From positions 64,001 to 128,000 of the IMG/VR virus record IMGVR_UViG_3300032213_002832: a stretch of DNA of 64,000 bases, one strand, 5' to 3'. The notes beneath the pieces are model-generated. The model did no database searches. It worked only from the letters and a program-made list of their open reading frames with translations, and was not told the DNA's origin. The number at the start of each line of letters is the position of its first letter. Positions within the stretch are counted from its first letter, which is position 1. Both the position numbers and the translations under genes were made by a program. Positions 21,539 through 59,840 of this stretch are shown here, in pieces. Origin of the DNA: a virus.

Positions 21539-21551
21539 TCGAATCGGTTTT
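21539..21551 (-). promoter_or_regulatory. Phage promoter motif AAAACCGATTCGA
   Basis: Intergenic, 33 nt upstream of ATG 21506. Confidence 0.7.
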
Positions 21552-21559
21552 GTTTAACT

Positions 21560-22045
21560 CTAGATAGGTTTAGCTTTTAAAACGTTTTTAAGATAAGTCT
21601 CAGCTTGTAATTTAGTTTTATGTTTTTTGCGTAGAGGATTTGAAATGGTTTTGCCGTTTCTAATAATGCCATATCCACTATCAATTTCATTTAAATCGTA
21701 TGTTACACCAGTTTCATCAGCATACTGATTAGATACCGATTTCGCTGGCACACTAACAGTTGGTTTGGCAATTGATGATAATCTACTTGTTACGGCCTTT
21801 TTAGCTATGATAAAAAATTCATCACCACTACTGCGATTCTTTCTAGATACATAGTCACCCTGCTGAAGTATATCTTTATATACTTTAATATCAACTGGCC
21901 CATGAATAACTGTTCCGTTTTGCTCTTTAGCTTCTACATGCGTATATTTCCCACTACGAATCTTTTCTATCTCAGATTTCCATATTAGTGTAGTATTCGC
22001 AAAACTCTCTGCTGATGTGGACTTCTTAATAGTTAATACTCTCAT
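21560..22045 (-). CDS. Hypothetical protein
   Basis: AGGAG RBS. Confidence 0.65.
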   Translation of the reverse strand: MRVLTIKKSTSAESFANTTLIWKSEIEKIRSGKYTHVEAKEQNGTVIHGPVDIKVYKDILQQGDYVSRKNRSSGDEFFIIAKKAVTSRLSSIAKPTVSVPAKSVSNQYADETGVTYDLNEIDSGYGIIRNGKTISNPLRKKHKTKLQAETYLKNVLKAKPI

Positions 22046-22090
22046 ACCTTCTCCTTTGTCATAATTGACATTTATTGATTATTCTTATAC

Positions 22091-22867
22091 TTAACCTAGC
22101 ATCTTTAATATTGCGTCTTTATCTTTTTCATAGATATGGCAAGAATGAACCACGTGAGTGTAGTCGCCTTTAGTAAGTGTTGGGTACGTAGGTTTTAACT
22201 CATCAATCATCTTATCCATAAGAGATACAAAAAATGGAAGATCATACACTAGTCCGCGAAATAAATCATTAGACCTCATAACTACTGAAAAATACAACTT
22301 ATCATTACGTATTAAAAAATTACCGTGCATGGTACAGGTCTGATCTTTATTACCCATATATTGATGTTCTGGTAAACTAAATCGCAATATAGCTTGACGC
22401 GTATCTTTGTCTGCCTTTAAAGATTCTAAACACCATTCCCACGGCGATCGATAAATAGATTGAGCTCTTATACTAATCCCACCATCTTCAAAGCTACGCT
22501 TTTTAGTATACTCATAATTCTCATTACCACAACTCTTGTTTTCCCATATCAAATACCCGTAAGCCGAATTGATAGTCCCATCTGGATTGGCTATCTTCTC
22601 CCAAAACTTAGAGGCCTTAGCAAAATCTTCTACACGATTAGAGCGAGAATTGTAAAGCTCAACCTCTTTAGCTGTATAGTCAGCTATTACTTTATTTCGC
22701 TCTAAGTCTTTAGTGATAATAGGTTCAGAAACTGGATCAGAGACTGTAAAAGTGTAGTTTAAGATCTCTCTAACTGGCATTCCACGTGGTGATGCTATAA
22801 AATCTGGAAAGTACCATACTTGCTGTAGCGCGTCTAAATACGCTTCATGTATATTCTTGTATGTCAT
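22091..22867 (-). CDS. Thymidylate synthase superfamily, Asp-type (dCMP hydroxymethylase-like)
   Basis: SAYG, DTRQA, KDQTCT (catalytic Cys), MRSNDLFRGLVYD (Asp at the TS Asn177 position), HSCHIYE. Confidence 0.8.
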   Translation of the reverse strand: MTYKNIHEAYLDALQQVWYFPDFIASPRGMPVREILNYTFTVSDPVSEPIITKDLERNKVIADYTAKEVELYNSRSNRVEDFAKASKFWEKIANPDGTINSAYGYLIWENKSCGNENYEYTKKRSFEDGGISIRAQSIYRSPWEWCLESLKADKDTRQAILRFSLPEHQYMGNKDQTCTMHGNFLIRNDKLYFSVVMRSNDLFRGLVYDLPFFVSLMDKMIDELKPTYPTLTKGDYTHVVHSCHIYEKDKDAILKMLG

Positions 22868-23532
22868 TTATATCCCTCTAAGAATTCTTCATCTCTATTA
22901 GATCTCATTTTCAATAATTCTACAAACATTGCGCGTTGATATTTATCTACCTTAAAACCTTTTTCAATATATTTTACTAATCTTTTTACAGTGATGCTTC
23001 TAGCTTCAGTCTGAAAAACAATTCTCTTATCTACACAGTCACCTATCGCACCTTGAACACTAATGACTTGGCGCTTAACTGGATCATAAGCTATGGCACA
23101 AGCTCTTATATCGAAGTGACTTATGAGATCTTCTGGGGTATTAAATGGTACACCTACAATTAGGTTGTAAGTAACGTTACGATAAACATGCGCACATAAA
23201 TCGTACATAAAATTAGTAGGTTTACTAAACCCATTAATAGCACACCATAAAGTAGCATGTTCTTTAGAATGGAAGTATATGTCAATATCGTTGTGAATTA
23301 TGCTTTGATTTATATAGTGGCACATATAAGAACCAGCTATAATCTCACCATTATCTACGTATTCTGACTCATTGAGCCAACGTAAGGCATTAATCGGACT
23401 AGTTAATATTAAGTTTTCATTTCTATAAAGAAATTCTGGTACTGGTTTATCGTTTAGTAAAAAACTATTTTGAATATCATCAATTTGCTTTTTATAATGT
23501 TCTTCCGCATTATATTCCATGAGTATATCCAT
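22864..23532 (-). CDS. Nucleotidyltransferase (CCA/poly(A) polymerase head-like)
   Basis: IIAGS..DIDIYF..FDIRACAIAYD..RLVKYIEKGF. Confidence 0.65.
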   Translation of the reverse strand: MDILMEYNAEEHYKKQIDDIQNSFLLNDKPVPEFLYRNENLILTSPINALRWLNESEYVDNGEIIAGSYMCHYINQSIIHNDIDIYFHSKEHATLWCAINGFSKPTNFMYDLCAHVYRNVTYNLIVGVPFNTPEDLISHFDIRACAIAYDPVKRQVISVQGAIGDCVDKRIVFQTEARSITVKRLVKYIEKGFKVDKYQRAMFVELLKMRSNRDEEFLEGYK

Positions 23533-23544
23533 ATAAACCCCTTT

Positions 23545-23934
23545 TTACTCGTCTTCAAACCTATCACCAATTACTTCTTCGACTGGACTCATCCAGACCC
23601 CGTAGCCGTAACGCTTCTTGGTAAGCTTTTTCATAAGTTGACCAACTCTATTATATAAGTGCTGAAACACAAACGTAAACTCTTTAACACTCCTACCATC
23701 TGCTGTACGATACTCAGGATTATAGTTTTGTAAAGCTATTACCAGCTGATAATAAAGTTCTTGGCGCATATCAGCCATGGTCATGCCAGTATTACCTAAC
23801 GATATGTCTGAATCACCAGCAGACATATTAGCTTCTTTCCAATTCTTAACAATACTATCTCTTAAGTACTTATTAACTAATGGCATATACTTCTTAATAT
23901 CAGCGTTTGTAACTACCCTACGTTGCTTATTCAT
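23545..23934 (-). CDS. Miniature sigma70-family factor (region 2 only)
   Basis: IKKYMPLVNKY..DMRQE..LVIALQNYNP..FTFVFQHLYNRV matches the region 2.1-2.4 pattern; 129 aa with no region 4. Confidence 0.55.
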   Translation of the reverse strand: MNKQRRVVTNADIKKYMPLVNKYLRDSIVKNWKEANMSAGDSDISLGNTGMTMADMRQELYYQLVIALQNYNPEYRTADGRSVKEFTFVFQHLYNRVGQLMKKLTKKRYGYGVWMSPVEEVIGDRFEDE

Positions 23935-24473
23935 CTTCTTATCTTTCTTTTGGATGTTTCAGGTGATTCGTATCGGTTTTTAATTAAAAGCAATACTGAT
24001 CGACAAACCTTTAAATGATCTTCAGTCCATGCGGGTTTTGAAGTTGTGAACTTATCAAACTCGTATAAATCTTTCATAAACGCTTCATTACGTATAAAAC
24101 TATTATTCATAGTAGTATCTCGATACCACTTGTATAGTGATGTCAACTTGTTATTACTATGCCCACCCCTTTTATTTATGAAGTCAAGGACCTTATCTCG
24201 CATATTATGGTTGATGCGAGAATAGATTGAGTCAATACTATAGTTAACATCATACTTGTTTCTTTCTAGATTAAACTTTAAATCCGTACAAGATCTCACA
24301 GCCTCTATAACCGCATCATTTATACCATGTATTGCTTGTGAATTAAAGATGAATTGTTTATTGTATCTAAAGTAGATTTGATCTGCGCCATAAGTCAATA
24401 TTGGCGCTATTATAGGTTCTGGTAATTCAATAGCTGAAATCACTTTAGCTACGTCATCTCGTAAATGCTTCAT
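23931..24473 (-). CDS. Hypothetical protein
   Basis: GGAGG RBS, coupled. Confidence 0.65.
   Translation of the reverse strand: MKHLRDDVAKVISAIELPEPIIAPILTYGADQIYFRYNKQFIFNSQAIHGINDAVIEAVRSCTDLKFNLERNKYDVNYSIDSIYSRINHNMRDKVLDFINKRGGHSNNKLTSLYKWYRDTTMNNSFIRNEAFMKDLYEFDKFTTSKPAWTEDHLKVCRSVLLLIKNRYESPETSKRKIRR
23967..23981 (-). promoter_or_regulatory. Phage promoter motif AAAAACCGATACGAA
   Basis: Embedded in the 3' end of the upstream gene, 33 nt before the mini-sigma ATG. Confidence 0.7.
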
Positions 24474-25174
24474 ACAACCTCCTCCATAGAGTAAATTGGA
24501 TTCTTCTTATGTGTCATACACTTGAGTTTGCTTATGTTTGCTAGAGAGTAGGCATCTCCATTTTTAGCATAACTTTTTATCCACTTGAGAAGCTTGATAA
24601 TCAAATCTACATTTTTAATATTCCAAGTATTGTCATAAACTATACGACCAATATGCGTTTGAAGTACGCGTGCTCTTTTATTAATGGCTCGTGATCGACC
24701 GTTTTCTTTACATTCTAATAAATCCGATAATACACTAATATTGGCAGGTTTTGCGCTAGCTACATTGATACAAAGTTCGTGTCTGCTATTAAGATAAGGT
24801 AGTAACTCTTTGATTTCATCGTCACCCAATGATTCTTTCTCTTTCACTATACTAATGCGACCTACTATTCTTTTTTCAGCAACCTCTATTTTAGTACCTG
24901 GCTCAACTGTCATTTTAAAATAACGTTCAAACCCAATCAAGTCAAACAGCTCTGCTTGCTCTTTCGAGATACCAGCTTTATCCAACATCCTATTACAAAA
25001 ATACTCTAATCTCAAATGTCTATCATCAGCAATATATGGAACCAACTCTTCGTATTCAAGCACATACTCTGAAGGTAGTTTAACTAATGTATCACTTAAA
25101 GAAAAAGTATAAGGTTCAATTGCCTTATTCAACCAATCCATCTCTTCATATTGCTTATCATCTAAAAATGCCAT
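24470..25174 (-). CDS. Hypothetical protein
   Basis: AGGAG RBS. Confidence 0.65.
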   Translation of the reverse strand: MAFLDDKQYEEMDWLNKAIEPYTFSLSDTLVKLPSEYVLEYEELVPYIADDRHLRLEYFCNRMLDKAGISKEQAELFDLIGFERYFKMTVEPGTKIEVAEKRIVGRISIVKEKESLGDDEIKELLPYLNSRHELCINVASAKPANISVLSDLLECKENGRSRAINKRARVLQTHIGRIVYDNTWNIKNVDLIIKLLKWIKSYAKNGDAYSLANISKLKCMTHKKNPIYSMEEVV

Positions 25175-25182
25175 CTGTTCTC

Positions 25183-25707
25183 CTAATTGTCAAACCAAAA
25201 AACAACACGAACCTCTGGATTTATATCGGATCGGTTTAGAAGCATAGCCTCCGCAGCCTCATTATTAATCCACTCTTCACAGTAGTTGATGATAGTAGTA
25301 TAGTCTTCAGGGCGTTTCTTACCACCATGGTAGTCACTATATTCAAAAAAAGCTTGAGTAGACTTATTATCTGTAGGATAATACTCTGCTTCTATAAGAC
25401 ATTGCTTAAATTCTTCAAGAGAAAGCCAACTATGTGAATGTCCATCAACATACCTATCATATTCCCATCTCAATAACTCTGAAATATCTTCTGGTATCCC
25501 TTTAGGTGCGCGTATTACTGCTGTACCATAACGACGCACACTAGCAAGTATTCCAAATAAATCATAGTTCCTGCCTGTAGCATTCACTTGTTCTAAATAC
25601 TTATAATTATCGCCATCTTCACTATTTACTGTATGGTTTTCATCTAGTTGCCAAGGGTCTTCTTTTCTAAGGCGCTTTTCCAAAAATACATGAATATCAC
25701 ATCCCAC
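25183..25707 (-). CDS. Conserved phage protein (MGCDIH..RNYxLFxxLAxVR..VFWFDN family)
   Basis: Characteristic motifs of a widespread phage hypothetical family. Confidence 0.75.
   Translation of the reverse strand: MGCDIHVFLEKRLRKEDPWQLDENHTVNSEDGDNYKYLEQVNATGRNYDLFGILASVRRYGTAVIRAPKGIPEDISELLRWEYDRYVDGHSHSWLSLEEFKQCLIEAEYYPTDNKSTQAFFEYSDYHGGKKRPEDYTTIINYCEEWINNEAAEAMLLNRSDINPEVRVVFWFDN
25226..25237 (-). promoter_or_regulatory. Phage promoter motif AAACCGATCCGA
   Basis: 52 nt upstream of ATG 25174. Confidence 0.55.
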
Positions 25708-25726
25708 CTATAACCCCTTATTATCA

Positions 25727-26017
25727 TTATTTAACTTCAAAACCTGCTTCTTGTGCCTCTTTTAAAGAGAGGTCACCGCGCTTCTCGTCTGCGCGACGTG
25801 TTCTAGCATAGCTAAACTTCTCATAATAAACAAAACGACCATCTGGTATAGTCGTTTTATATACGGTTCCATCCGCATCTTGAAAATAACTGTTGACACC
25901 AATCTCAGCCACTACTGTTTCAAGCGCAGTAGAGAGCTCGTCAAAATACTTCTTTACTTCACTCTTCTTACGTTCTAGCTCAATGAACCGCTGAATCGCC
26001 GGCGTTAGATTTGACAT
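25727..26017 (-). CDS. Hypothetical protein
   Basis: Start revised to MSNLTPAIQ (AAGGA RBS). Confidence 0.65.
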   Translation of the reverse strand: MSNLTPAIQRFIELERKKSEVKKYFDELSTALETVVAEIGVNSYFQDADGTVYKTTIPDGRFVYYEKFSYARTRRADEKRGDLSLKEAQEAGFEVK

Positions 26018-26540
26018 CCTTATTCTCCTCAGTATTTTTAACGACACGAAGAATTCGCGTCTTACTTGTAGGATTCGGATCGGTTTTTAATTCTGCTATT
26101 TTATCTTCAGGTAGTAGACCAGACTCAAGGTATGGGAGTAGTTGTGAAGCCTTCATGGTTTTAGCTTCTCCATCTATTCTTATGCTCATAGTAGGATCAG
26201 CTCCATCTTTAAGCATGCTTCTAAATAGATCTAGTTTCTCTTCTTCCATAGCTTTAATTTTAGATACTAAAGAGTTTTTATATCGGCCATGAGCAGCACT
26301 AGCATTAGGTTGGTCTAGAGCTCCAAAAATCTGTATTTGCTCATTAGATATTTCGTTAATACGTTCTATTTTGGCTTGTAGCATGCCATTTTTAACACCT
26401 TCATCATAGGCGTAATTAATGTTTTTAACTATGTTTCTCTCAACACCACTAAGTAGTAGGTTATTGAAGAAGTTACTTATATAATAACCAATTAATGAAC
26501 CAACAATCAATGCGCAAGTAATAGATAACAGTAATAACAT
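25980..26540 (-). CDS. Membrane-anchored hypothetical protein
   Basis: N-terminal TM helix. Confidence 0.65.
   Translation of the reverse strand: MLLLLSITCALIVGSLIGYYISNFFNNLLLSGVERNIVKNINYAYDEGVKNGMLQAKIERINEISNEQIQIFGALDQPNASAAHGRYKNSLVSKIKAMEEEKLDLFRSMLKDGADPTMSIRIDGEAKTMKASQLLPYLESGLLPEDKIAELKTDPNPTSKTRILRVVKNTEENKDVKSNAGDSAVH
26075..26088 (-). promoter_or_regulatory. Phage promoter motif AAAAACCGATCCGA
   Basis: 58 nt upstream of ATG 26017. Confidence 0.6.
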
Positions 26541-26594
26541 ACAATCCTTTCAATAATATATCAATAGGATTATACAAAACCGTGTTTAATTAAT

Positions 26595-27173: not shown

Positions 27174-27232
27174 GGTTTATCTCCAAAACATAATAAGTCA
27201 TTATATTTACAATTATACCACAGATAATAAGT

Positions 27233-27258: not shown

Positions 27259-27316
27259 TATTTTGCCAGAGTTTCCTCTGGCTAACACGTTCACTTTCGA
27301 TCCCGTGGATTCGGCT

Positions 27317-27392: not shown

Positions 27393-27397
27393 CATTC

Positions 27398-27414: not shown

Positions 27415-27933
27415 TTAATCCCAAAGTGTTCTCCAATATTTACCTAAGTGCTTGAATAAACGATCATATAGTTCATCTTCTTTTTTAGCACTTTTCTCAT
27501 ACATCTCTCTCGAATCGGTTTCAGCCAACTCATGTAGCTCTGGAGTGTTAGCCTTGCTATAGCTCACCTTTAGTGCTTTATATCTTCTCTTATCAGCCTT
27601 TTCAGCTATAATCTCTTCAAAGCTATACTTTGTATCACCCCATTTATCATTGAATTCTTTTTTATAGAGTTCAGTATCATATTGGCTTTTAATACGCTCA
27701 AAAAGATATACAGCATAATCTATACGTCTACAAATAGTATTATGGTCAGTAACTAGCTGATTTCTACGTATACACTTAGACATACGCTTAAGCTTGAATA
27801 TAATCATATCTTCAAGAAATCCATAGTCATAATCTCTATCCTCTTTAAGAAGAGGTAGCCAATCTTTGATGCGATTAGCTGTTTGTATTTTAACTTTTGT
27901 TTTTCTATGCTTCTGGCGTTTTCTACTGTTCAT
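27415..27933 (-). CDS. Conserved phage hypothetical protein
   Basis: DRDYDYGFL..FKLKRM..LFKHLGKYWRTLWD pattern. Confidence 0.7.
   Translation of the reverse strand: MNSRKRQKHRKTKVKIQTANRIKDWLPLLKEDRDYDYGFLEDMIIFKLKRMSKCIRRNQLVTDHNTICRRIDYAVYLFERIKSQYDTELYKKEFNDKWGDTKYSFEEIIAEKADKRRYKALKVSYSKANTPELHELAETDSREMYEKSAKKEDELYDRLFKHLGKYWRTLWD
27510..27521 (-). promoter_or_regulatory. Phage promoter motif AAACCGATTCGA
   Basis: Intragenic copy about 120 nt upstream of the tRNA. Confidence 0.45.
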
Positions 27934-33727: not shown

Positions 33728-33753
33728 AATATCTCCTATTTTATATAAAACAT

Positions 33754-33766
33754 TCGGATCGGTTTT
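33754..33766 (-). promoter_or_regulatory. Phage promoter motif AAAACCGATCCGA
   Basis: Intergenic, 27 nt upstream of ATG 33727. Confidence 0.75.
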
Positions 33767-33985: not shown

Positions 33986-35155
33986 TTATTTCTTCAATGC
34001 GCTGCTAAGTTTAATATGGTCACGTAGCAACTCAATACTCTTAGGGTTACGCTTAGTGAATTCACTAAAGAATTGAGAGATGTTACCACGTTGATTCTTC
34101 TGCGCACAACCTTTGATAAGGTTAATACCGTGATCTGCTGGGATGTTTTCCACAACTTCAACCATAGTCTTCTCATCAATAGTCTCTGGATCATGTGCCC
34201 AATCTTTACCGTCCTTCTTGCGTCCTTCGAACCAGCCACCGTATTTTTCAATAATACTATCAACAGTGAGTGAGATCTTGTCGCCAGCGTAGTTTGCGTT
34301 GGTCTTGTACATATCTTTTAGTTTCTGGATTGCTTTCTCTTTATCATTTAGGATGTCTTGTGCTGTTACAGGCGCGTCATCCCAGCAAGATTTCCAGTAC
34401 TCGTTACCTAAGTGCTTACCTAGTACTGATAGAGCTACAATGTAGTGAGAGCCTCTTTTTGAAGGGTGGTCAGATGCGCCACACATTTCAATAGCATTCA
34501 AGCGATCAAGGGTACGTGGACTAACATACTTGCCTTCTTTACCAACACCATCAGATTTCTTATAAACCCAGCTACCAGCTTTAACAAAGTTTATAACATT
34601 CCTATGCCAAAAAGTAGTTTCGATGTGAGTCATGAACGCTTGGTAGTTGAATTCAACTTCAAATTCTTCAAAACGATTTTTAAGAGCTGTATCCATGCTG
34701 TTGACGTCGTATTTTGAACCTTCAGGGTTTAGTGCTGCTGCGATAACCCAACCTTCAGGTAGTTCGTATGTTGGACCAACTTTTCTGTTCTTATCTGTGA
34801 GCTGCATTAAGCAGTTCTGAATCATTGTATTACCACGGTTTGGCTCTTCAAGTAGTAGAAGTCCGCGACCTTTGGTTGGCCAGAAGTGTGGAAGTGCGTG
34901 ACCCATTCGAGCATTACCTTCTTGATCTTTGTACTCGTAAGGATAGCCTACGAAGTCCGGCCCTTCATAATACGCAATACGTAAGTCAATAAAGCCAAAG
35001 TCAGGATCTGTTTCTCTCTGCTTGGCTACCCATTGCTGTATGATCTCGGATTTACCGATGCCGGCTTCGCCGACAAACATCGGGTTAAAAATCCGCTTAA
35101 TTTTACGAGCAGCAATTGCTAAATCAAGAATCTCTGTAATTTTGTCTGGGTTCAT
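33986..35155 (-). CDS. MoxR-like AAA+ ATPase
   Basis: GEAGIGKS Walker A, IDLR, LLLEEPNR Walker B, AALNP, MDTALKNRF. Confidence 0.88.
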   Translation of the reverse strand: MNPDKITEILDLAIAARKIKRIFNPMFVGEAGIGKSEIIQQWVAKQRETDPDFGFIDLRIAYYEGPDFVGYPYEYKDQEGNARMGHALPHFWPTKGRGLLLLEEPNRGNTMIQNCLMQLTDKNRKVGPTYELPEGWVIAAALNPEGSKYDVNSMDTALKNRFEEFEVEFNYQAFMTHIETTFWHRNVINFVKAGSWVYKKSDGVGKEGKYVSPRTLDRLNAIEMCGASDHPSKRGSHYIVALSVLGKHLGNEYWKSCWDDAPVTAQDILNDKEKAIQKLKDMYKTNANYAGDKISLTVDSIIEKYGGWFEGRKKDGKDWAHDPETIDEKTMVEVVENIPADHGINLIKGCAQKNQRGNISQFFSEFTKRNPKSIELLRDHIKLSSALKK

Positions 35156-35184
35156 AAAATCTCCTTAAATATTATATTCAACAT

Positions 35185-35198
35185 TCGAATCGGTTTTT
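35185..35198 (-). promoter_or_regulatory. Phage promoter motif AAAAACCGATTCGA
   Basis: Intergenic, 30 nt upstream of ATG 35155. Confidence 0.75.
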
Positions 35199-36517: not shown

Positions 36518-36770
36518 TCAATCTATCAACTATCTCTTTAGGTAGATTGTAATTATTAATTATATCTTTTAATGATATTTTCTTAATAGATTTATTGACC
36601 TTACGATTCTCTGCGAAATAGTGAGCACCTTCATCTAATGATAAGATACGACCCTCTGGCATGGTATTTACGATTGGTACTTGTATAGCAACTTCAGCGA
36701 CTTCTTGCTTAGGCAGTACTTCTACTTTTCCACCTCTAGCTAAAAACTCTTCAAACGTCTCTCTTCTCAT
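36501..36770 (-). CDS. Small phage protein with EEFLARGGKVEVLP (SutA-like) motif
   Basis: Start revised to MRRETFEE (GGAGG); motif resembles the FLxxGGxI segment of SutA-type RNAP-binding proteins. Confidence 0.55.
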   Translation of the reverse strand: MRRETFEEFLARGGKVEVLPKQEVAEVAIQVPIVNTMPEGRILSLDEGAHYFAENRKVNKSIKKISLKDIINNYNLPKEIVDRLSGTNE

Positions 36771-37395
36771 CTGATCCTCCAAGGATAAGTGAATCTACGA
36801 AATCTGGAAATGCCTTAACAGCAATATTGATTAATTCTCTGCGTTGTTCTACTTCTTTTTTATATAGCTTATATTCAGCTACTTTTTTATATAACTTACC
36901 AAGACGAACCTTTATTAATTGAATATCGCGTCGGTTTTCAAATTCAAAGTCCCAGTTGATTTCAGCTTCAGATTCATAGTTTTTATCCACAAACCCAGTT
37001 ACGGAGCCTGTCTTACGAACTTCACTGCTAGTGACTTTTATATGGAATACGTTTGTAAAGTAATCCCACTCTATTTGCAACGCAGATGTAGGACCAGAAT
37101 CATTGTCTGTTGGTTTGTCAGCTATCTGTGATCTATCATAGTGATTATAGAATATACCGTTAGAATTAAAGAAAATACGTGTTCTTTTTACAGATTTCTT
37201 CATAACACTTTTACCATGAGTCTCCATAAAGTTTATATGAGAGAAGTCCGACGGATCTCTTATATCCTCTATAATTTCACTTACTACATTAGTACCAAAA
37301 CAATCTAAGCCCTTATTATCTAACTCTTCTTCTAACTTATTTACAAATAGCTTTAGCATAGCTAAATCTTCTGAATTTGTCTTCTTTATTTGCAT
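36751..37395 (-). CDS. Hypothetical protein
   Basis: GGAG RBS. Confidence 0.65.
   Translation of the reverse strand: MQIKKTNSEDLAMLKLFVNKLEEELDNKGLDCFGTNVVSEIIEDIRDPSDFSHINFMETHGKSVMKKSVKRTRIFFNSNGIFYNHYDRSQIADKPTDNDSGPTSALQIEWDYFTNVFHIKVTSSEVRKTGSVTGFVDKNYESEAEINWDFEFENRRDIQLIKVRLGKLYKKVAEYKLYKKEVEQRRELINIAVKAFPDFVDSLILGGSDEKRDV
36926..36938 (-). promoter_or_regulatory. Phage promoter motif variant AAAACCGACGCGA
   Basis: Intragenic; identical to the copy at 59828. Confidence 0.5.
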
Positions 37396-37431: not shown

Positions 37432-38316
37432 ATGGGATTATACATGGCTATATCTGATAACAATGTGACCCAAATACTTGATTATGATGTTGATTTTAAA
37501 AAACGTCGTATCTATTTTGGTGCGCTTAACGCAAGTAATGACGAGAACGGCTCTGAATTTACTTGGCGCTCTGTAGAGCGTGCGGTAAGGCATATCCATA
37601 TAATGGAAAGTGACGCGCCTGCTAAGCCAATAGAGTTACATATGTCTAGCATAGGTGGTGATACTGCTGCTCTTTTACGTTTATATGATGTCATACAAAG
37701 CTGCTCCTGTCAAATTAAGTTCATCGGTGGTGGAGAGATAAGTTCATCAGCCACTTGGATTATGGCTAGTTGCGATGAGCGTCTACTATATCCAAATACT
37801 ACTATTACAATTCACGATAGTGGTTGGGGTGAAGCAGTGTCTCCAGAAAAGCTTGTAGACAAAAGTATTATGATTGATAACGAAAAACTATTACAACACA
37901 AACTAAATCAGATATATGCCGATAACTCTATAATGCCATTAGAGTTTTGGACAGAGATGGTTAAACGAGATCTCTATCTCACCGCAGAAGAAGCTATCAT
38001 GTTAGGCTTAGCTGACAAGATTATTCAACCGCGTAAAAGAGGTAGCTTGCGTCGTAACCGTATAGCAAGTATGAAGCAAGAGAGAGATAAGAAAGATATG
38101 AGTAAGATGTTAAAGATGCTCAAAGATCGTATCTATATGGATAAACTCTCAAAACTAGAATTACATCTTCCTGAAGAGAAGTTCGATAAAACGCTAGTGA
38201 TTGACAATACAGTAACAGTGGAAGTCCCTACGGTAGTAGCTCCTTTAATAGGAGGTACAAGCCAATCAGATGTCGATTTTCCTCTTCCCACTCTTCATGG
38301 CAAGACGAACACCTGA
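37432..38316 (+). CDS. clpP: ClpP-like protease with C-terminal extension
   Basis: SSIGG, ISSSA (Ser), TIHD (His), KRDLYLTAEEAIMLGLADKI (Asp). Confidence 0.8.
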   Translation: MGLYMAISDNNVTQILDYDVDFKKRRIYFGALNASNDENGSEFTWRSVERAVRHIHIMESDAPAKPIELHMSSIGGDTAALLRLYDVIQSCSCQIKFIGGGEISSSATWIMASCDERLLYPNTTITIHDSGWGEAVSPEKLVDKSIMIDNEKLLQHKLNQIYADNSIMPLEFWTEMVKRDLYLTAEEAIMLGLADKIIQPRKRGSLRRNRIASMKQERDKKDMSKMLKMLKDRIYMDKLSKLELHLPEEKFDKTLVIDNTVTVEVPTVVAPLIGGTSQSDVDFPLPTLHGKTNT

Positions 38317-39843: not shown

Positions 39844-40875
39844 CTATAATTTGTTTGTGAAATAATTGATTATATGTAAGTGATCCTCATAGAATTCTGA
39901 CTCTTTAATAAATAAGTCTGCTATTGGAATCCATATCGCTCTTTCAGCATCGTCATCACCTTTAACTTGTGGAAGTTGTCCACCGTCAGGTAGTTTTACG
40001 CAAAAAGCATTAGTAATAGTACGACCACGTAGCGATCTACTCGGATTATCAAATACACGCTGGTCAACTATGTATTTCATTAATGTATCTTTTGGTACTA
40101 AGATACGAGTCTCTTCTTTGAGCTCACGAAATGCTGAGTCAATAATAGTTTCATTTTGGTTTACGAAGCCACCTGGAAGTGCTAGAAGCCCTTTACCAGG
40201 ATTAAACTTCCTACGAATAACTAGAACATGGGCGTTTTTAACTACTAGAACATCAGTAGTGACAAAGGTTACTGGATATGGTGCCATTGCCCACATGTCT
40301 TTATAATCTTTAATAAACTTCCACTCTTCAACTAAGTTAGTATATGTTGTAGTCTTTTCCCAATTTGTTAAATAATCTGTTACTTCTTTAGCTAAATTAT
40401 TGGTAAACTGAGGGTTGTTTTGAAAGTATAAGTTACGAATCTCAGTGGCATGTGTTACATTTCTAGCGATAGAGAGTTCTCGTTTCCAACTCTCTGGAAG
40501 AGCATCTAGATACCAAGAGCTCTCATCTTTATTAGAACCTAATACGCATATGCTTGAAGTTTCCACATTATATATTTGATTCATTACTGAGTTATGTAAG
40601 TCAGTAAACCAAGCTGTATCATTATAGTAATAATCACGAACTTGTACAAAAATAAGTCGAGTATTTTCTAATTTAGAGAAACAAACTCTAACCATCTCTT
40701 CACGTTCTTGAGCATTCCAGGGGTTTTTAATGTTTGGGGCAGCACGATGTGAGCCAAGAGCAATAATTACATTATTGGCTAATTCTAATCCGCGCTTGAT
40801 TTGATTGATGTGTTCTTTGTGGGGTGGTTGGAGTCGGCCAATGAAAACCGCATAGTCATACTTATACTTATTCAT
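39844..40875 (-). CDS. nadM: Bifunctional NMN adenylyltransferase / ADP-ribose pyrophosphatase (NadM-Nudix)
   Basis: GRLQPPHKEH, KNPW, ALPGGF..RELKEET Nudix box, RSLRGR, DDA, EDH. Confidence 0.93.
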   Translation of the reverse strand: MNKYKYDYAVFIGRLQPPHKEHINQIKRGLELANNVIIALGSHRAAPNIKNPWNAQEREEMVRVCFSKLENTRLIFVQVRDYYYNDTAWFTDLHNSVMNQIYNVETSSICVLGSNKDESSWYLDALPESWKRELSIARNVTHATEIRNLYFQNNPQFTNNLAKEVTDYLTNWEKTTTYTNLVEEWKFIKDYKDMWAMAPYPVTFVTTDVLVVKNAHVLVIRRKFNPGKGLLALPGGFVNQNETIIDSAFRELKEETRILVPKDTLMKYIVDQRVFDNPSRSLRGRTITNAFCVKLPDGGQLPQVKGDDDAERAIWIPIADLFIKESEFYEDHLHIINYFTNKL

Positions 40876-40920: not shown

Positions 40921-40948
40921 ATTATACCACAATATATCGAAACGGTTT
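40921..40948 (-). promoter_or_regulatory. Composite promoter: motif variant AAACCGTTTCGA plus TGTGGTATAAT
   Basis: Both elements directly upstream of the NAD operon. Confidence 0.65.
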
Positions 40949-47059: not shown

Positions 47060-47842
47060 TTAATGTTTTGATAAAAAAGCTTCTAAAGCACTTAGAGGTA
47101 CTAGCATAGCAAAAGCTCTAAGCTGACCCTCTACTAACGACATTACACCAACTACTTCACCATCTTCATTAAGAGCAGGCGATCCACTCTGTCCCTTATC
47201 AGCTAACGCGTCTGTGAACATAAAAGGTGCCGTGAGAACACATATTTGTTCATTTTTTATTGTTCCATCTTTTAATTTTATCGAAACGGTTTCAATTTTA
47301 TACTTTTTAGCTACGCAGAATTTTAGATCTTCTAGTGGATATTGGTTGGATATAAGAAAACGCCCACGATAATGTCCACTTGAAGAAGACAATAGTGGGA
47401 CAATAGGATATCCTACTATGGTGACTTTTGAGTCAATATAAACATCTTCAGCTAACTTAATAGATTTAAAATGAAAATCTTTTGGTACCTCAACAAGACA
47501 TAAATCGTGTTCACTATCAAGTTTGAGTGGTTTTACTTTAAATCGTGAATATTTTCGTAAAATATTATTCTCTCTATGAGAGACAATAAAGAGTGGTAGT
47601 AGGTTGTTTATTTCGCACACATGAGCATTAGTAATAATGACCTGTTTACCACTTTTTGTATTAGCGAGAAAGCCAGTACCACTGGATCCAGTGGTAACAT
47701 CTTCTAAAGATACGATTGATTCAGCATTTTGGTGTAAAACATTCTCTGATTCATGAATAGTTTTCTCGTGATCAATAATAGAAAAACTAGAAACCATGCC
47801 GAGTATTACCAGTAAACCTATTATCATTCGATTGTCCTTCAT
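47060..47842 (-). CDS. Secreted/membrane-anchored trypsin-like serine protease
   Basis: Signal/TM, GTGF, TNAHVC, DLCL, GQSGSP. Confidence 0.88.
   Translation of the reverse strand: MKDNRMIIGLLVILGMVSSFSIIDHEKTIHESENVLHQNAESIVSLEDVTTGSSGTGFLANTKSGKQVIITNAHVCEINNLLPLFIVSHRENNILRKYSRFKVKPLKLDSEHDLCLVEVPKDFHFKSIKLAEDVYIDSKVTIVGYPIVPLLSSSSGHYRGRFLISNQYPLEDLKFCVAKKYKIETVSIKLKDGTIKNEQICVLTAPFMFTDALADKGQSGSPALNEDGEVVGVMSLVEGQLRAFAMLVPLSALEAFLSKH
47281..47292 (-). promoter_or_regulatory. Motif variant AAACCGTTTCGA
   Basis: Intragenic, about 230 nt upstream of the ligase genes; identical to the 40937 copy. Confidence 0.45.
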
Positions 47843-48030: not shown

Positions 48031-48070
48031 ATTAATGACTCTCCTTTATGTAGTAGGCTATTATAGACAG

Positions 48071-48088
48071 TATAATAAGTAGTATAAT
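48071..48088 (+). promoter_or_regulatory. Tandem TATAAT boxes upstream of FliA-like gene
   Basis: agTATAATa twice, 12 nt apart. Confidence 0.5.
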
Positions 48089-48115: not shown

Positions 48116-48520
48116 ATGAGTCTCTTAAAAGATCCGAAGAACAAGAAACTACTTGACGAATTTATGATCGAACACGCCCCACTTATCAATAAGCATATTA
48201 ACGTATTGAAATCACAGAATAAGATACCACCACACGTTCAAGAAGAAGACCTACATTTGGCTGGATTCAAGGGTTTAATGGAGGCTGTCCATAAATATGA
48301 TCCAGAGATTGCTAGTCGACTATCTTCGAAAGAGGGTGAAAACGTCTTTGCTAAATATGCCGACAAGAAAATTCGTGGACATATGCTAGATCATGTAGTC
48401 TCTACTGGTGAAATACCTAAAGTACACCAGAAGAGAGCCAAGAATATCAGCCTTCTTGAGAAGCAACCTGAGGCTACTACGACTGTGAATCTGGCGAATC
48501 CGGTGAAGAGCTCAGAATAG
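48116..48520 (+). CDS. Miniature FliA/sigma28-like factor (region 2 only)
   Basis: EHAPLINKH..IPPHVQEEDLHLAGFKGLMEAVHKYDP..FAKYADKKIRGHMLDHV..IPK matches FliA/WhiG region 2; 134 aa with regions 3 and 4 absent. Confidence 0.75.
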   Translation: MSLLKDPKNKKLLDEFMIEHAPLINKHINVLKSQNKIPPHVQEEDLHLAGFKGLMEAVHKYDPEIASRLSSKEGENVFAKYADKKIRGHMLDHVVSTGEIPKVHQKRAKNISLLEKQPEATTTVNLANPVKSSE

Positions 48521-50583: not shown

Positions 50584-50881
50584 TGACTTCCTTTTTAACT
50601 AGGAGTTAATTTAATTATACAGCATTTTAATTGAAAATATTAACGACGAGTGCTGTTATAATAAGAGTAGAATATCTGTATATGTTTCTTTATCAGTGTG
50701 GGGATAAGTTATGACTTCCATTATGTATATTACTCTTTGTTGCTATTGTATATATTGCCACTATAAGACTAATAAATTAATCTTAATTCCAATTAAAAAA
50801 TAATTCCAGTAAATTATTAAAATAACCGTATGCTATTGTGGCATACTTATCTTTTATCGTCACCTCATATGGAGAGTTCAC

Positions 50882-53131: not shown

Positions 53132-53596
53132 TTATATATTTACTATGTTACAATTTGCTGTAGTAAAATTGAAGGTTTCATGTATTACACCAGTGACCCT
53201 ATCTATATATCTAGCCTTCATAAGGTTGGTTTTTCTATCTAACATAATCACCCACTTACCACCATTGTTAAAAGGAGCATAAACGTCAGCATCCACTGTT
53301 ACTCGTGCTAATAAAGATCCAGCTTCATCTTTATAATACTCTTGTTTGTTATTTCGTGAGAAGTCATGTCGTGTAGCTACTTCGGCAGAGGCTTTGATAT
53401 TACCATTTTGAGTGATTTCGGCTTTGTATTTAAGTGAAACACCATTTAGTCTTATATAAGATCCACTGGAAACACCTTCGCATTGAATGGTAGATACCAC
53501 TCTATCTGTAATTGGTTGACGCTTGGTTGGTACTTGAATAGATGTTGGATTGTTACAACTGATTATCATTAACAATAAAGAAAAATACCTTACCAT
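53132..53596 (-). CDS. Lipoprotein, paralog of 53643-54170 head domain
   Basis: IISC lipobox; colinear similarity to its neighbour. Confidence 0.7.
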   Translation of the reverse strand: MVRYFSLLLMIISCNNPTSIQVPTKRQPITDRVVSTIQCEGVSSGSYIRLNGVSLKYKAEITQNGNIKASAEVATRHDFSRNNKQEYYKDEAGSLLARVTVDADVYAPFNNGGKWVIMLDRKTNLMKARYIDRVTGVIHETFNFTTANCNIVNI

Positions 53597-53627: not shown

Positions 53628-53640
53628 TCGTATCGGTTTT
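53628..53640 (-). promoter_or_regulatory. Phage promoter motif AAAACCGATACGA
   Basis: Intergenic, 32 nt upstream of ATG 53596. Confidence 0.75.
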
Positions 53641-53642: not shown

Positions 53643-54170
53643 TTAATAGTTATTAATTATACAGGCAGAAGCTGGATAAGTAAATGTTTGCGTTACCGTG
53701 TCGTGATAAACAACAGTAGCAATACCTGTATAGCGGGCCACACTAATTTCAAACCACCCATTATTATTATATGGAGAGTAATAATCTGCGCCAATTTCTA
53801 TAGCAGCTGTTGAAGCTCCAACTTGATTAGCAGAGTAAAATCGAGAACCAGATGTAGGGTCTACGCCTGGTATAGAAACTTCTGCTGAAGCCCAAACATC
53901 GCCAGCTTTAGTAACTGTAGCCCAATAAGATACCTTAATTCCATTTAGCGCATAAGACGATCCGCTTGTAGTTCCATTACAGTATAACGTAGCTACTACT
54001 TTATTATCAGTTCCCGATGAGCCCGTAGCTCCAGTAGGACCAGTGGCTCCAGTAGGGCCTGGTGAGCCTTTGTCTCCAGTAGGACCAGCTGGTCCAGTAC
54101 CACCATCTTTACCATCAGTACCACAACTCATTAAACTTAACGCCAACATCAGACCACTTAATACTTTCAT
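53643..54170 (-). CDS. Collagen-like lipoprotein
   Basis: LMSC lipobox, about 12 Gly-X-Y triplets, beta head domain. Confidence 0.8.
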   Translation of the reverse strand: MKVLSGLMLALSLMSCGTDGKDGGTGPAGPTGDKGSPGPTGATGPTGATGSSGTDNKVVATLYCNGTTSGSSYALNGIKVSYWATVTKAGDVWASAEVSIPGVDPTSGSRFYSANQVGASTAAIEIGADYYSPYNNNGWFEISVARYTGIATVVYHDTVTQTFTYPASACIINNY

Positions 54171-54198
54171 CGATTCTCCTTAGATTGTTACATAACTA

Positions 54199-54212
54199 TC
54201 GTATCGGTTTTT
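54199..54212 (-). promoter_or_regulatory. Phage promoter motif AAAAACCGATACGA
   Basis: Intergenic, 29 nt upstream of ATG 54170. Confidence 0.75.
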
Positions 54213-54221
54213 ACTTACTTA

Positions 54222-55124: not shown

Positions 55125-55137
55125 TCCATTTCCTTTC

Positions 55138-55987: not shown

Positions 55988-56016
55988 TTCTATCTCTCCA
56001 ATTGTTAAATGTTATG

Positions 56017-56262: not shown

Positions 56263-56273
56263 ATAGTTTCCTC

Positions 56274-56804: not shown

Positions 56805-57256
56805 CTAAACTTCCTTCTTATTGGTGTTAATACTACATTTGATTCCATTGGTTTTTGTGTAAAAAAGCTTACATGACATGAATATGTGCGTTTTGATGGA
56901 CTATACCAAATACAAGTATTTGATTCTAGTGCTGATAATCCATATTTTCCATGATGATCTTTTATTATTTGAGAAGCTTTTTGTAAAACTTCATTCATAT
57001 TTTGACTTTGAAACATAGCTGCGACAAATCTTTTTTCCCTATACATTTGTGTATAGTTTACTCCACCCCATAATTCCTTATAATCCTTGTAAACATCTTC
57101 CCCTAAATATGCTCTTAATACATTATCTGGTACCTTTTCAGAGATAGTATCATTGTAAAAATGTTTAGGTAGCGTTTGATTTAAAATGCCAAAACCACCT
57201 ATAGCGGAACCAATCAAACCTATACCAATATTTCTAAACAAATCTCGCTTATTCAT
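56801..57256 (-). CDS. Hypothetical exported protein (Tat-like KRDLF signal)
   Basis: MNKRDLFRNIGIGLIG. Confidence 0.55.
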   Translation of the reverse strand: MNKRDLFRNIGIGLIGSAIGGFGILNQTLPKHFYNDTISEKVPDNVLRAYLGEDVYKDYKELWGGVNYTQMYREKRFVAAMFQSQNMNEVLQKASQIIKDHHGKYGLSALESNTCIWYSPSKRTYSCHVSFFTQKPMESNVVLTPIRRKFR

Positions 57257-57456
57257 TTAACTTCCTTTTGTCCAATTCGTTTTAAAAGCTCTTCTGATTC
57301 TAAGTAAAAATCATCTTCCCAAGCTCTCTCATCACCACCCCAATCTACAACAACGCCTAGATTTAACAATGCTTGAGAGAATCTTGTGTCAGGATACTCT
57401 TCGATATACTGCTCTAGTATAAGTATTATTAAGCGATTTGCTTCTAGACGTGTCAT
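57253..57456 (-). CDS. Small conserved phage protein
   Basis: YPDTRFSQALLN..DDFYLES. Confidence 0.65.
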   Translation of the reverse strand: MTRLEANRLIILILEQYIEEYPDTRFSQALLNLGVVVDWGGDERAWEDDFYLESEELLKRIGQKEVK

Positions 57457-57465
57457 AGGGATTCC

Positions 57466-58848
57466 TTAGTGTGTAAAGTCAGAGGCAGGCACTACAGCTT
57501 CAGTCATATTTGGGCCAGACATCTTGAGTTGTAAAGCGATCTGAGTAGCTGGACCTTGGAAATACACGATATTGAACTTGTTTGGACCTTTATTAAGTAA
57601 CTTAGTACCAGATACGGTATGTGGAGCATGTAAACCTTGATCTTCGACTAATAAATAACTATCTTCGATTGAGAGTCTAGCACCGTCATCACTTAGAAGT
57701 TTAAGAGTATATTCACCAGAAGTCTTGATGTTTAAATAACCAGAACAATCTAAAGCATAATCAGTATCGCCTACTAATGTTCGTAAATTAGCTGGCATTC
57801 CTGGAAAACCATTAGCAGATGGACTATCACCTACACTTAGATTAGCAAGAACAAAACTGCCTACTACTGGACTATTTTTTAGAGCATCAGGTAGTTTAGT
57901 ATCACCATTAGTTGAACTAAGATTATGAACATTACATAAAAGACCTGGTTGAATAGCATCTTCACCATCAGCACCAGTTGCTCCTACTGACCCATTAAGT
58001 CCGTCACGTCCTGGCTGACCTTGTGGGCCAGTTGTACCTGCTGGACCTTGAGCACCATTAGCTAGAAATACAGTACTTTCACCACAGACTACATTAGCTC
58101 CACCTGGAGCAGCAAATGCGGTACAAGAAGTTCCATTCAAACCATTTTGTCCGTTTTCACCATTCTGGCCATTTTGGCCATTATTTCCAGTTTTACCTTT
58201 TTTGCCATCATACACATAAGATACAGAATGTCCACATGTAATTTTTATACGTTTTTTATGAGATTGACGCTTCACTGTACAGCTGTCGCCCTTATCACCT
58301 TTATCTCCAGCAATACCTTGTTCACCCTGAATACCCTGATCACCCTGAATACCTTGTTCACCTTGAATACCCTGATCACCTTTATCACCTTTAGCTCCAT
58401 TATGGATAACTAAAGATTCTTGGTCAGGACAAGAAAGGACGACATTACCATCTTCGTCTGTTGATGTTGAACAGCTAAGACCATCAGATCCAGCTACACC
58501 CTGCTCACCAGTTTCACCCTGAATACCTTGTATTCCTTGAACACCTTGCGAACCGTTATAAACGATTTGACTAGTGCCATCATCACAAGAAATCTTAGCA
58601 CCAATCACTACTAAAGTAGTATCTAAAGAGTAGTATTCATCTTCTAGTTCAGCATAAGCTGGGGCAACTGAACATGAGCTACCATCTTTACCAGTTGCGC
58701 CAGTATCGCCTTTCGCTCCATCTTTACCATCAACACCGTTGGTTCCATTTGTACCAGCAGCACCAGGTGCTCCAACCGTCACCTTCACTTTCTCTTTGTC
58801 TACACTACAACCCACTAATAACATTAGACTCAGCAACACGTTCTTCAT
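57466..58848 (-). CDS. Collagen-like lipoprotein with C-terminal PA14 domain
   Basis: LLVGC lipobox; Gly-X-Y blocks separated by Cys-bonded beta spacers; YTLKLLSDDGARLSI..YFQGP PA14 motif. Confidence 0.85.
   Translation of the reverse strand: MKNVLLSLMLLVGCSVDKEKVKVTVGAPGAAGTNGTNGVDGKDGAKGDTGATGKDGSSCSVAPAYAELEDEYYSLDTTLVVIGAKISCDDGTSQIVYNGSQGVQGIQGIQGETGEQGVAGSDGLSCSTSTDEDGNVVLSCPDQESLVIHNGAKGDKGDQGIQGEQGIQGDQGIQGEQGIAGDKGDKGDSCTVKRQSHKKRIKITCGHSVSYVYDGKKGKTGNNGQNGQNGENGQNGLNGTSCTAFAAPGGANVVCGESTVFLANGAQGPAGTTGPQGQPGRDGLNGSVGATGADGEDAIQPGLLCNVHNLSSTNGDTKLPDALKNSPVVGSFVLANLSVGDSPSANGFPGMPANLRTLVGDTDYALDCSGYLNIKTSGEYTLKLLSDDGARLSIEDSYLLVEDQGLHAPHTVSGTKLLNKGPNKFNIVYFQGPATQIALQLKMSGPNMTEAVVPASDFTH
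58311..58392 (-). repeat. Imperfect 18-bp tandem repeats (GIQG(E/D)Q)
   Basis: aataccYtgWtcaccYtg units in the collagen region. Confidence 0.8.
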
Positions 58849-58933
58849 TCTTACTCCTATATATTGATTGGCGCTTAAAACTATGTATAATATACTAAGA
58901 TATAATCTTAATAAAGTGTTAAAGGATACAAAA

Positions 58934-59182
58934 ATGGCATTATTAATACCGAAAATACAAAAAGATATGGAAGCAGCTTTGATTGCGGCTTTAAAAACAG
59001 AGTTTGCTAAAGAGGGCTTGGCTGATACTACATCTCATCAAAGAATGGCAGCAGCTATAGCGAAAGGCGTAACTCAAGTACTCATCACTGCCATCACTAC
59101 ACAAGCACAAGTGGTGCCAGGTATCGCGACGGTGGGTGGCGAAAGTTCACAAACTTCAGTTTCACCAGGAAAAATAGTTTAA
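58934..59182 (+). CDS. Small virion (baseplate-tip-like) protein
   Basis: Start revised to MALLIPK; own TATAAT promoter; AQVVPGIATVG..PGKIV pattern. Confidence 0.45.
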   Translation: MALLIPKIQKDMEAALIAALKTEFAKEGLADTTSHQRMAAAIAKGVTQVLITAITTQAQVVPGIATVGGESSQTSVSPGKIV

Positions 59183-59376
59183 GGCTTATAGTGAGTTCTC
59201 TTCATATACTCAACGACGGGATTATTATAGTAATCCCTTGTTCTCTCTTGAAGCCTGTTCAGCTCTTCCAATGAATAAGCTGTATCATTCTTCTCACTTC
59301 TAAACAAACCGGTTATCATAAAACCTATTGGTATACCAGCAAAAATACCCACGATCAAACCCCATATAAAGAACAT
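59179..59376 (-). CDS. Small membrane protein
   Basis: N-terminal TM. Confidence 0.55.
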   Translation of the reverse strand: MFFIWGLIVGIFAGIPIGFMITGLFRSEKNDTAYSLEELNRLQERTRDYYNNPVVEYMKRTHYKP

Positions 59377-59390
59377 AAAACCCCTAATTG

Positions 59391-59600
59391 TTACAGTTTT
59401 TGATCTTGTATTACATTAACACCGGCTTTATGTGCTCTATCTCGCATCATTGATAGTCGATCTGCTAACTCTTTATAAACTTTGCTTTCAGCTACAATAG
59501 CTGTATTATTGGCTTTGATTAGAAGTTCAATAATTAAATCATTAGCATCTATATAAACTTCTTTAGAGGGTATTTCAACCACACGAATATTGTGGTTCAT
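59391..59600 (-). CDS. Hypothetical protein
   Basis: Coupled ATGA. Confidence 0.55.
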   Translation of the reverse strand: MNHNIRVVEIPSKEVYIDANDLIIELLIKANNTAIVAESKVYKELADRLSMMRDRAHKAGVNVIQDQKL

Positions 59601-59788
59601 TCTTTAATCCGATATGATCTCAAAACTCCAATATTAGCTTGTGTACGCTCTTTAGTGAGCTTTTCTTTTTTCTTACGATTTGCTTCCATGATGTTTTCAA
59701 AAGAGGTCTCTTCTACTTCTTCATCAAAAATAATCTCTTCATTTTCAACTAGCTTTTCTTTAGAGAATAGATTAATCACCTTACCCAT
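59597..59788 (-). CDS. Small hypothetical protein
   Basis: Start revised to MGKVINLF (AGGAG). Confidence 0.6.
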   Translation of the reverse strand: MGKVINLFSKEKLVENEEIIFDEEVEETSFENIMEANRKKKEKLTKERTQANIGVLRSYRIKE

Positions 59789-59827
59789 TAAGCCTCTCCT
59801 TTCAAATGATAACACCACACATATAAA

Positions 59828-59840
59828 TCGCGTCGGTTTT
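59828..59840 (-). promoter_or_regulatory. Phage promoter motif variant AAAACCGACGCGA
   Basis: Intergenic, 40 nt upstream of ATG 59788. Confidence 0.65.

Follow-up and report, generated by a model that had tools for sequence, protein, structure and literature searches.

The reprogramming of host RNA polymerase by phage sigma factors is a classic subject, and few promoter/sigma pairs are known. Here we describe a candidate pair in a 64,000-nucleotide (nt) stretch of viral DNA, hereafter the window, which comprises bases 64001–128000 of the 167,515-bp virus record IMGVR_UViG_3300032213_002832. The pair consists of a short strand-specific motif, AACCGAnnCGA, and P0002, a stand-alone protein of 134 amino acids (aa) related to region 2 of the sigma-28 factors FliA and WhiG. 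We propose, with moderate confidence, that the motif represents a phage promoter class that occupies the -10 position without a -35 element, and that it is most likely read by P0002 on the host core polymerase. All results are computational; from the observed motif statistics, position and conservation, the sigma-28 identity of P0002 and the co-occurrence of the two, we infer transcriptional activity, the start site and the identity of the reader.

Bacterial sigma-28 factors (FliA/SigD/WhiG) recognize promoters of the form TAAA-N15-GCCGATAA, the -10 core of which, C-G-A(-T), is common to the phage motif, and P0002 keeps the residues that serve the flipped A-11 and the G-12/C-13 pair of positions. 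However, sigma-28 promoters possess a -35 element and are read by a full-length sigma, whereas the phage motif has no -35 and P0002 lacks regions 3.2 and 4. The motif also differs from the sigma-28 box in its length of 11 bp, its two CGA triplets and its invariant AA; the G/C of the extended -10 appears to be missing from it, and the Arg that reads this pair in sigma-28 corresponds to an invariant Lys. The sigma-28 regulon is flagellar, whereas the phage motif precedes early-type and metabolic genes. The motif thus falls outside the canonical sigma-28 promoter class, and P0002 outside the full-length FliA proteins: P0002 displays the region 2 homology and the -10-reading residues of the FliA/WhiG family, and not its full length of approximately 240 aa. 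A literature search of incomplete coverage found no FliA-type, region-2-only phage sigma and no AACCGAnnCGA box.

In phage T4, gp55 is a sigma cut to approximately region 2, and its promoters consist of one box at the -10 position with no -35, the arrangement proposed here for P0002 and the motif; as with gp55, the partner would be the host core polymerase, no polymerase of its own having been found in this phage. Unlike gp55, which is too diverged to be assigned, P0002 is clearly sigma-28-derived, although PHROGs places it in generic sigma families only. The T4 late promoter, TATAAATA, consists of A/T only and drives structural genes, whereas AACCGAnnCGA contains G/C and lies upstream of metabolic and small early-type genes. 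The gp28 and gp33/34 cascade of SPO1 offers a further parallel, i.e., a large myovirus with its own sigmas and a phage-specific promoter consensus. SPO1 sigmas recognize bipartite -35/-10 promoters; unlike them, the sigma described here is a 134-aa sigma-28 fragment and its putative promoters have no -35. Finally, if a TATAnA sequence that follows many copies is taken as the -10, the motif would be placed near -30, separated from it by a 12–13-bp spacer, as in the MotA-box middle promoters of T4. Unlike in MotA promoters, no MotA C-terminal domain was found, and the TATAnA lacks the T at -7, is unconserved in relatives and lies too near the Shine-Dalgarno (SD) sequence.

A search with the pattern TCGNRWCGGTTT on the plus strand, equivalent to AAACCGWYNCGA on the minus strand, returned 13 matches in the window, all in a single orientation; in 100 dinucleotide-shuffled sequences the mean count was 0.04, and none held more than one match. 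These are the 13 minus-strand copies listed in the preliminary description of this DNA, its copy at 23967 being the one at 23968 plus one A. The strand bias holds across the 167,515 bp, where all 23 matches to the strict motif fall on the minus strand, and the core AAC[CT]GnnnCGA is found 38 times there versus twice on the plus strand. Position weight matrix hits with a score of at least 12 were likewise distributed 38 to 2 in this phage and 30 to 2 in G001, a collinear relative described below, and the exact form AACCGA..CGA, pooled over both genomes, 50 to 0. The motif-bearing genes number about 40 and lie on one strand. All credible copies belong to the minus-strand arm of the genome, bar one strict copy at genome position 31996, which precedes by 35 nt the one further block of several minus-strand genes.

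With the AA taken as positions 0–1, CCGA occupies positions 2–5 and is followed by T at position 6 in 22 of the 38 sites of this phage and 17 of 23 in G001. The second CGA, at a fixed 5-bp offset from the first, is invariant at positions 8–10, and T/A-rich bases follow it. When one position at a time was relaxed in this phage and G001, the 2-nt spacer proved invariant, A1 and A10 never varied, A5 tolerated T, and changes were tolerated at positions 0 and 3. Upstream of the motif, positions -25 to -2 each carry at most 0.14 bit (38 sites), only the A at -1 being conserved, and the 42 sites from other phages likewise show no position that stands out; the lack of a conserved -35, previously noted for the copies checked, is thereby general. 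A TAAA-type element about 15 bp upstream of the -10, as in sigma-28 promoters, was absent from both sets of sites.

The association with gene starts holds genome-wide and in relatives. The window distances, counted between the final CGA base and the ATG, are 26–33 nt at six sites and 39–61 nt at four, in agreement with the short and longer groups reported earlier. Over all SD-supported starts, the median distance is 31 nt and the minimum 23 nt. A second promoter-like class in the same genome, (G)GTATAAT, shows virtually the same placement, its 3' end lying at a median of 31 nt and a minimum of 24 nt from the ATG (Mann-Whitney p = 0.67 versus the motif). Twenty of the 38 motif sites are fully intergenic in a genome of which only 6.5% is non-coding (p = 2e-14), and strong hairpins occur within 75 nt upstream of 36% of sites compared with 12% of random positions (p = 0.018). 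Many of these hairpins have cUUCGg loops and T-runs, and the order of hairpin and then motif is that expected of a terminator followed by a promoter between transcription units.

Searches of INPHARED phages by DNA and protein found no near relatives, and a single-protein locus search with an ATPase of the window retrieved none. A scan of viral contigs for AACCGAWTCGA-N8-TATA gave 75 single hits, essentially the chance level, one of which led to G001, a 166,618-bp record collinear with this phage, with approximately 18 kb aligning at 65–73% nucleotide identity. In G001 the motif occurs 23 times in forward and twice in reverse orientation (reversed-pattern controls, 3 and 0); AACCGATTCGA accounts for 13 of the 23 sites, and the sites lie 20–52 nt before SD-ATG starts. 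The partial relatives G006 and G007 carry 4–5 copies each, on one strand only. Five further contigs encode P0002-family members at 50–60% identity in the same antisense orientation and a shared synteny, with a trypsin-like peptidase and DNA ligase on one side and ClpP and ThyX on the other; in the four loci that extend far enough, an RNR gene lies beyond ThyX. In these five contigs, all 12 exact AACCGA..CGA copies fall on the strand opposite the sigma gene, against an expectation of 0.29 (p = 5e-16). One of these sites occupies an orthologous place upstream of ClpP in four of the loci. Strand-biased 8-mers in the relatives were dominated by coding bias and uninformative.

The motif is present in all seven phages that encode a stand-alone mini-sigma, each time on the strand opposite the sigma gene, and is missing from all three relatives G009, G010 and G013, each at least 91% complete. 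In G010 and G009 the sigma-28-like module forms the C-terminal part of larger proteins of 550 aa (L103:1378-3030, minus strand) and 641 aa (L104:43-1968, plus strand), respectively, the N-terminal 400–500 residues of which matched no Pfam family. In these modules the residues equivalent to Y81, D92 and K102 of P0002 are changed to W or H, to T, and to Q or H. Since the two groups are also clades, the correlation between motif and sigma (seven of seven present, three of three absent) is suggestive.

P0002 is encoded at 48116-48520 on the plus strand, antisense to the motif-bearing arm, behind two GTATAAT boxes at 48070-48076 and 48082-48088 (plus strand); its 123-aa orthologue in G001 is also antisense and lies behind one such box. 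A Pfam search matched neither P0002 nor P0001, the other putative mini-sigma of the window, and a six-frame search recovered Sigma70_r2 in the G001 orthologue (E = 1e-10). The NCBIfam model TIGR02479 (FliA/WhiG) matched P0002 with E = 1.6e-11 and the G001 orthologue with E = 5e-23. The aligned part spans model positions 3-89 and 2-89 of 224, respectively, and the scores of 44–82 bits lie below the family cut-off of 189.6; regions 3 and 4 are not present. The best-matching solved structures are WhiG and FliA (E ~1e-11 to 1e-12). Judged by these matches, P0002 is a sigma-28 relative cut to region 2 and the first helix of region 3.

In the Pseudomonas open complex, where the sigma-28 box is numbered (-15)GCCGATAA(-8), Y76 stacks on the flipped A-11, R80 reads G-12, D87 contacts -12/-13, and R97 reads the G/C of the extended -10 (PMC12784957). 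In the HMMER alignment these four residues correspond to Y81, K85 (R in G001), D92 and K102 of P0002. The family comprises at least 53 stand-alone proteins of 80–176 aa, most of 113–153 aa; the 27 members aligned all share D92 and K102, nearly all have Y81, and none has a residue other than K or R at position 85. The change of Arg to Lys at the extended -10 reader fits the apparent lack of a G/C pair at that site of the motif. In the sampled loci the neighbouring genes lie on the opposite strand, and one family member sourced from NCBI sits in a metagenome assembly.

The preliminary description regarded the motif itself as probably the -10 element, with CGA as a phage-specific extension. The lack of a -35 and the GTATAAT-like position support this, with the modification that the downstream CGA, rather than CCGAT, is the likelier melted core, because A1, A10 and the CGA are invariant, A5 tolerates T, and a pyrimidine–purine (YR) step follows at a suitable place. 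In the 42 sites from other phages, A/T make up 79–93% at positions 11–16, a pyrimidine stands at position 19 in 76%, and C is never seen at position 20, where 88% of sites have a purine; the corresponding figures for this phage are 82% (pyrimidine at 19) and 89% (purine at 20). No SD begins before position 21 in this phage or G001. The probable start site, as read from this conserved step, is the purine at position 20, 10 nt after CGA, so that the start formerly expected 5–8 nt after the motif is moved to about 10 nt, and the 23-nt lower bound between CGA and ATG would follow from the same Y(-1)R(+1) start.

We therefore picture the putative promoters as follows. C8-G9-A10 would be equivalent to C-13 G-12 A-11 of sigma-28 promoters, with A10 as the flipped base, while the A/T-rich positions 11–16 would form the melted tract and transcription would begin at the purine of position 20. 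AACCGA would probably act as an upstream extension at about -21 to -16. Promoters of this kind would drive the leftward, minus-strand arm.

Several points weigh against this proposal. Promoter activity and the start site are deduced from sequence features. The register is ambiguous: CCGAT at positions 2–6 matches five bases of the sigma-28 box and would place the start near 16, whereas CGA at 8–10 matches three, although it agrees better with the YR step and the invariance. The extended -10 site of sigma-28 (-15/-14) would be occupied by A and C in the CCGAT register and by the variable NN, mostly T/A, in the CGA register. The R97 equivalent is an invariant Lys, and reading of AACCGA, at about -20, by region 2 alone is left unexplained. 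P0002 is itself preceded by GTATAAT boxes, as structural genes are, which clouds its timing relative to the supposedly early genes. The co-occurrence of motif and sigma is confounded by shared ancestry, the motif-bearing phages being one clade, and a covariation search in G010 found no replacement motif and only two CCGATCGTATAAT sites. Lastly, the TATA sequence downstream of the motif is strongly conserved in the early region at a fixed spacing of 8 nt, which could mean a different architecture.

This last element, which the preliminary description overlooked, has the form T-A-T-n-A and lies exactly 8 nt after CGA (TATA at positions 19–22). It is strong at genome 132.4-144.1 kb (L005 ~4400-16100), where 15 of 19 sites possess it, and weak in the window; the early-region promoters that have it often follow terminators with cUUCGg loops. 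It raises the doubtful alternative that the motif is an activator box on the T4 MotA model, at which a phage protein bound at about -31 to -21 recruits polymerase to TATAnA as the -10; such a polymerase would carry either the host primary sigma or a phage RpoD-like sigma without region 4. The fixed spacing in the early region favours this model, as do the 13-bp spacer from AACCGA to TATA, which resembles MotA-box geometry, and the thought that an RpoD-like sigma without region 4 could need help. However, G001 and other relatives show TATAnA weakly or not at all, although the motif itself persists there, and a T at -7 is found in only 8 of the 38 sites. The distance from the end of the box to the ATG is only 9–22 nt, and the SD of 13 out of 25 sites begins -1 to 6 nt after TATAnA, whereas the real GTATAAT boxes of this genome keep at least 14 nt before the SD. 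A downstream -10 would thus start transcription inside the SD, a conflict pointed out earlier for two copies that now generalizes. The MotA C-terminal domain (MotCF) was not found in this phage or G001; AsiA was not searched. Because of the scarce T at -7, the poor conservation and the spacing, the motif and not the TATA sub-box appears to hold the -10 position, and TATAnA was rejected as a sigma-70-type -10. With a start at position 20, the early-region TATA would instead be part of the start site and the initial transcript.

A full-length sigma-28 of the host (FliA or SigD) might also read the motif, in which case P0002 would compete, serve as a decoy or modulate. CCGAT is identical to the core of the sigma-28 -10 element, and P0002, which lacks regions 3.2-4, might bind core polymerase without initiating. 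We regard this as unlikely, since no TAAA-type -35 is present at the required spacing, the invariant downstream CGA and the AA at 0–1 are foreign to the consensus of the host factor, and the motif goes with the phage sigma and disappears where the specificity residues of that protein are altered; moreover, the host may not be flagellated.

The preliminary description had named two mini-sigmas as possible readers. P0002 is a demonstrable sigma-28 relative, whereas P0001 (129 aa; 23545-23934, minus strand) is weakly sigma-like, possibly a diverged region-2 fold, and also occurs in relatives that lack the motif. P0001 might read the motif alone or together with P0002, one region-2 module per CGA half-site, and the fixed 5-bp offset of the two triplets, its own gene downstream of a motif copy and a predicted fold that matches mainly sigma region-2 domains are in line with this. 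The AlphaFold model, built with 10 homologues (predicted local distance difference test, pLDDT, 73.5), aligns with the N-terminal domain of SigE at a template modelling (TM) score of 0.68–0.70 on the target. The fold matches, however, have E-values of 0.15 or worse, no significant family match was returned for P0001, and homologues are encoded in six related contigs without the motif, three of them at least 91% complete. P0001 was rejected as the primary reader on account of these motif-less relatives, and a reading role for it, alone or with P0002, is quite improbable; P0001 is not the specificity determinant, and a helper role is conceivable. No positionally conserved promoter was seen upstream of the P0001 orthologues.

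That the motif is no promoter at all and acts as an RNA processing or cleavage, translation or stability element, or as a DNA signal of replication or packaging polarity, would suit its strand specificity taken alone and the 3 of 13 window copies inside open reading frames (ORFs) with no nearby start codon, but is most improbable in view of the narrow start-codon distance, identical to that of -10 boxes, the enrichment in intergenic DNA and downstream of terminators, the lack of any Rfam match in the window and of any RNA folding signal around the motif (mean z -0.1 to -0.2), and the fact that polarity signals are normally not tied to gene starts.

If P0002 is the reader, a simple cascade can be envisaged in which a GTATAAT-type promoter would express P0002, antisense to its regulon, and P0002 would in turn switch on the approximately 40 motif promoters. 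A different timing, which we consider rather unlikely, would make the mini-sigma a virion protein, produced late from the GTATAAT class that it shares with the structural genes and injected with the DNA, with the motif promoters as the immediate-early class, read by the injected sigma on host core polymerase. In seven of seven phages a GTATAAT box precedes the sigma gene, which runs antisense to the regulon, and this fits the idea; the early-looking region also shows no excess of canonical -35/-10 promoters (62 found versus 72 expected) and contains no intergenic GTATAAT boxes. An injected minimal sigma, if true, would parallel the injected polymerases of N4 or phiKZ, with a sigma alone in their place.

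P0002 and its motif may constitute a naturally reduced system in which to study how much of a sigma promoter recognition and melting require, as well as a ready-made orthogonal promoter/sigma pair for synthetic biology. The motif also opens a way into the regulatory programme of an uncultured large-phage clade, at least 53 members of the sigma family being found in metagenomes, and the pair would illustrate how a flagellar sigma lineage was captured and pared down by viruses.

The six copies of the window at 26–33 nt from an ATG are those at 21539, 23968, 33754, 35185, 53628 and 54199. The copy at 21539..21550 (AAACCGATTCGA; minus strand, as are all copies) is intergenic, 32 nt from the ATG of a 140-aa ORF (21084-21506), with a predicted start at about 21529. 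At 23968..23979, AAACCGATACGA is embedded in the 3' end of ORF 23931-24473, 33 nt from the ATG of P0001. The copy at 33754..33765 (AAACCGATCCGA) is intergenic, follows a strong terminator-like hairpin and lies 26 nt from the ATG (33727) of the gene for a 482-aa HNH-family protein, with the start site predicted at 33744; the one at 35185..35196 (AAACCGATTCGA), also intergenic, is 29 nt from the ATG of a 389-aa ATPase (33986-35155), with a predicted start at 35175. The intergenic copies at 53628..53639 and 54199..54210 (both AAACCGATACGA) precede, by 31 and 28 nt, the ATG of a 154-aa ORF (53132-53596) and of a 175-aa collagen-repeat ORF (53643-54170), respectively, and their predicted starts are 53618 and 54189.

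Four copies lie 39–61 nt from an ATG. AAACCGATCCGA at 25226..25237 is located in the 3' end of ORF 25183-25707, 51 nt from the ATG of a 234-aa ORF (24470-25174), and the same sequence at 26075..26086 lies inside ORF 25980-26540, 57 nt from an SD-supported ATG at 26017; together with the copy at 23968, these are the three sites that bear out the earlier remark on copies written into the 3' end of an upstream gene. The copy at 59828..59839 (AAACCGACGCGA) is intergenic, 39 nt from the ATG at 59788 of a small ORF. At 40937..40948, the variant AAACCGTTTCGA, with T at position 5, is situated 61 nt before a cytidylyltransferase/NUDIX (NMN-adenylyltransferase/NUDIX) gene (39844-40875), which is followed by a nicotinamide phosphoribosyltransferase gene. 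Here the variant motif (AACCGTTTCGA) and a GGTATAAT box 8 nt downstream stand in tandem (window 40921-40948, minus strand), which suggests dual control of a nicotinamide adenine dinucleotide (NAD) salvage operon.

The remaining three copies, at 27510, 36926 and 47281, are ORF-internal with no start within 140 nt. The copy at 27510..27521 (AAACCGATTCGA), inside ORF 27415-27933 with no nearby start codon, is possibly an internal promoter or unused. AAACCGACGCGA at 36926..36937 lies inside ORF 36751-37395 with the next start about 150 nt away, and the variant AAACCGTTTCGA at 47281..47292 lies inside the trypsin-like peptidase gene (47060-47842), 230 nt from the DNA ligase start.

The genome has direct terminal repeats and a G+C content of 36.8%. 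According to a crude gene map, a long minus-strand arm at approximately 81.6-143.9 kb is flanked by plus-strand arms on both sides; its content includes many small early-type genes together with genes of nucleotide, NAD and RNA-repair metabolism. Its capsid protein most resembles those of SPO1-like phages, and the nearest cultured relatives of that protein are Herelleviridae, at ~30% identity.

The (G)GTATAAT boxes are enriched upstream of plus-strand genes, intergenic, and located on both strands 24–59 nt before start codons. In the window they occur at 3289, 16192, 37413, 48070, 48082 and 58885 on the plus strand, and at 20123-20129, 26569-26575, 27212-27218, 37437-37443, 40921-40927 and 50614-50620 on the minus strand. 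The class dominates the plus-strand arms, precedes structural genes and is mixed with the motif class on the minus arm. In four relatives (L106-L109 ~9980-10000), GGTATAAT is separated by exactly 6 nt from the ATG of the mini-sigma gene, with no SD before it, which suggests from sequence that the mini-sigma mRNA is leaderless there. The two CCGATCGTATAAT sites of G010 (L112:10591 and L113:6896) are intergenic, with a CCGAT core abutting GTATAAT just upstream of an SD-ATG, and might represent a hybrid between the two promoter classes or their ancestral state.

Searches for a T7-type or multisubunit RNA polymerase (PF00940, PF00623, PF00562) gave nothing above cut-offs, the PF00940 negative being a weak one, as control genomes gave no match either. 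Outside the window, genome 34734-35420 (L002:14734-15420, plus strand) encodes the RpoD-like sigma, a protein of 228 aa with regions 1.2, 2 and 3 and no confident region 4. It is ~47% identical to phage rpoD genes and may serve the -35-less (G)GTATAAT class. In the structural-gene region, a 146-aa protein (genome 60343-60783; L004:343-783, plus strand) resembles sigma region 4 weakly, with a Pfam match that stays below the cut-off (E = 2e-4).

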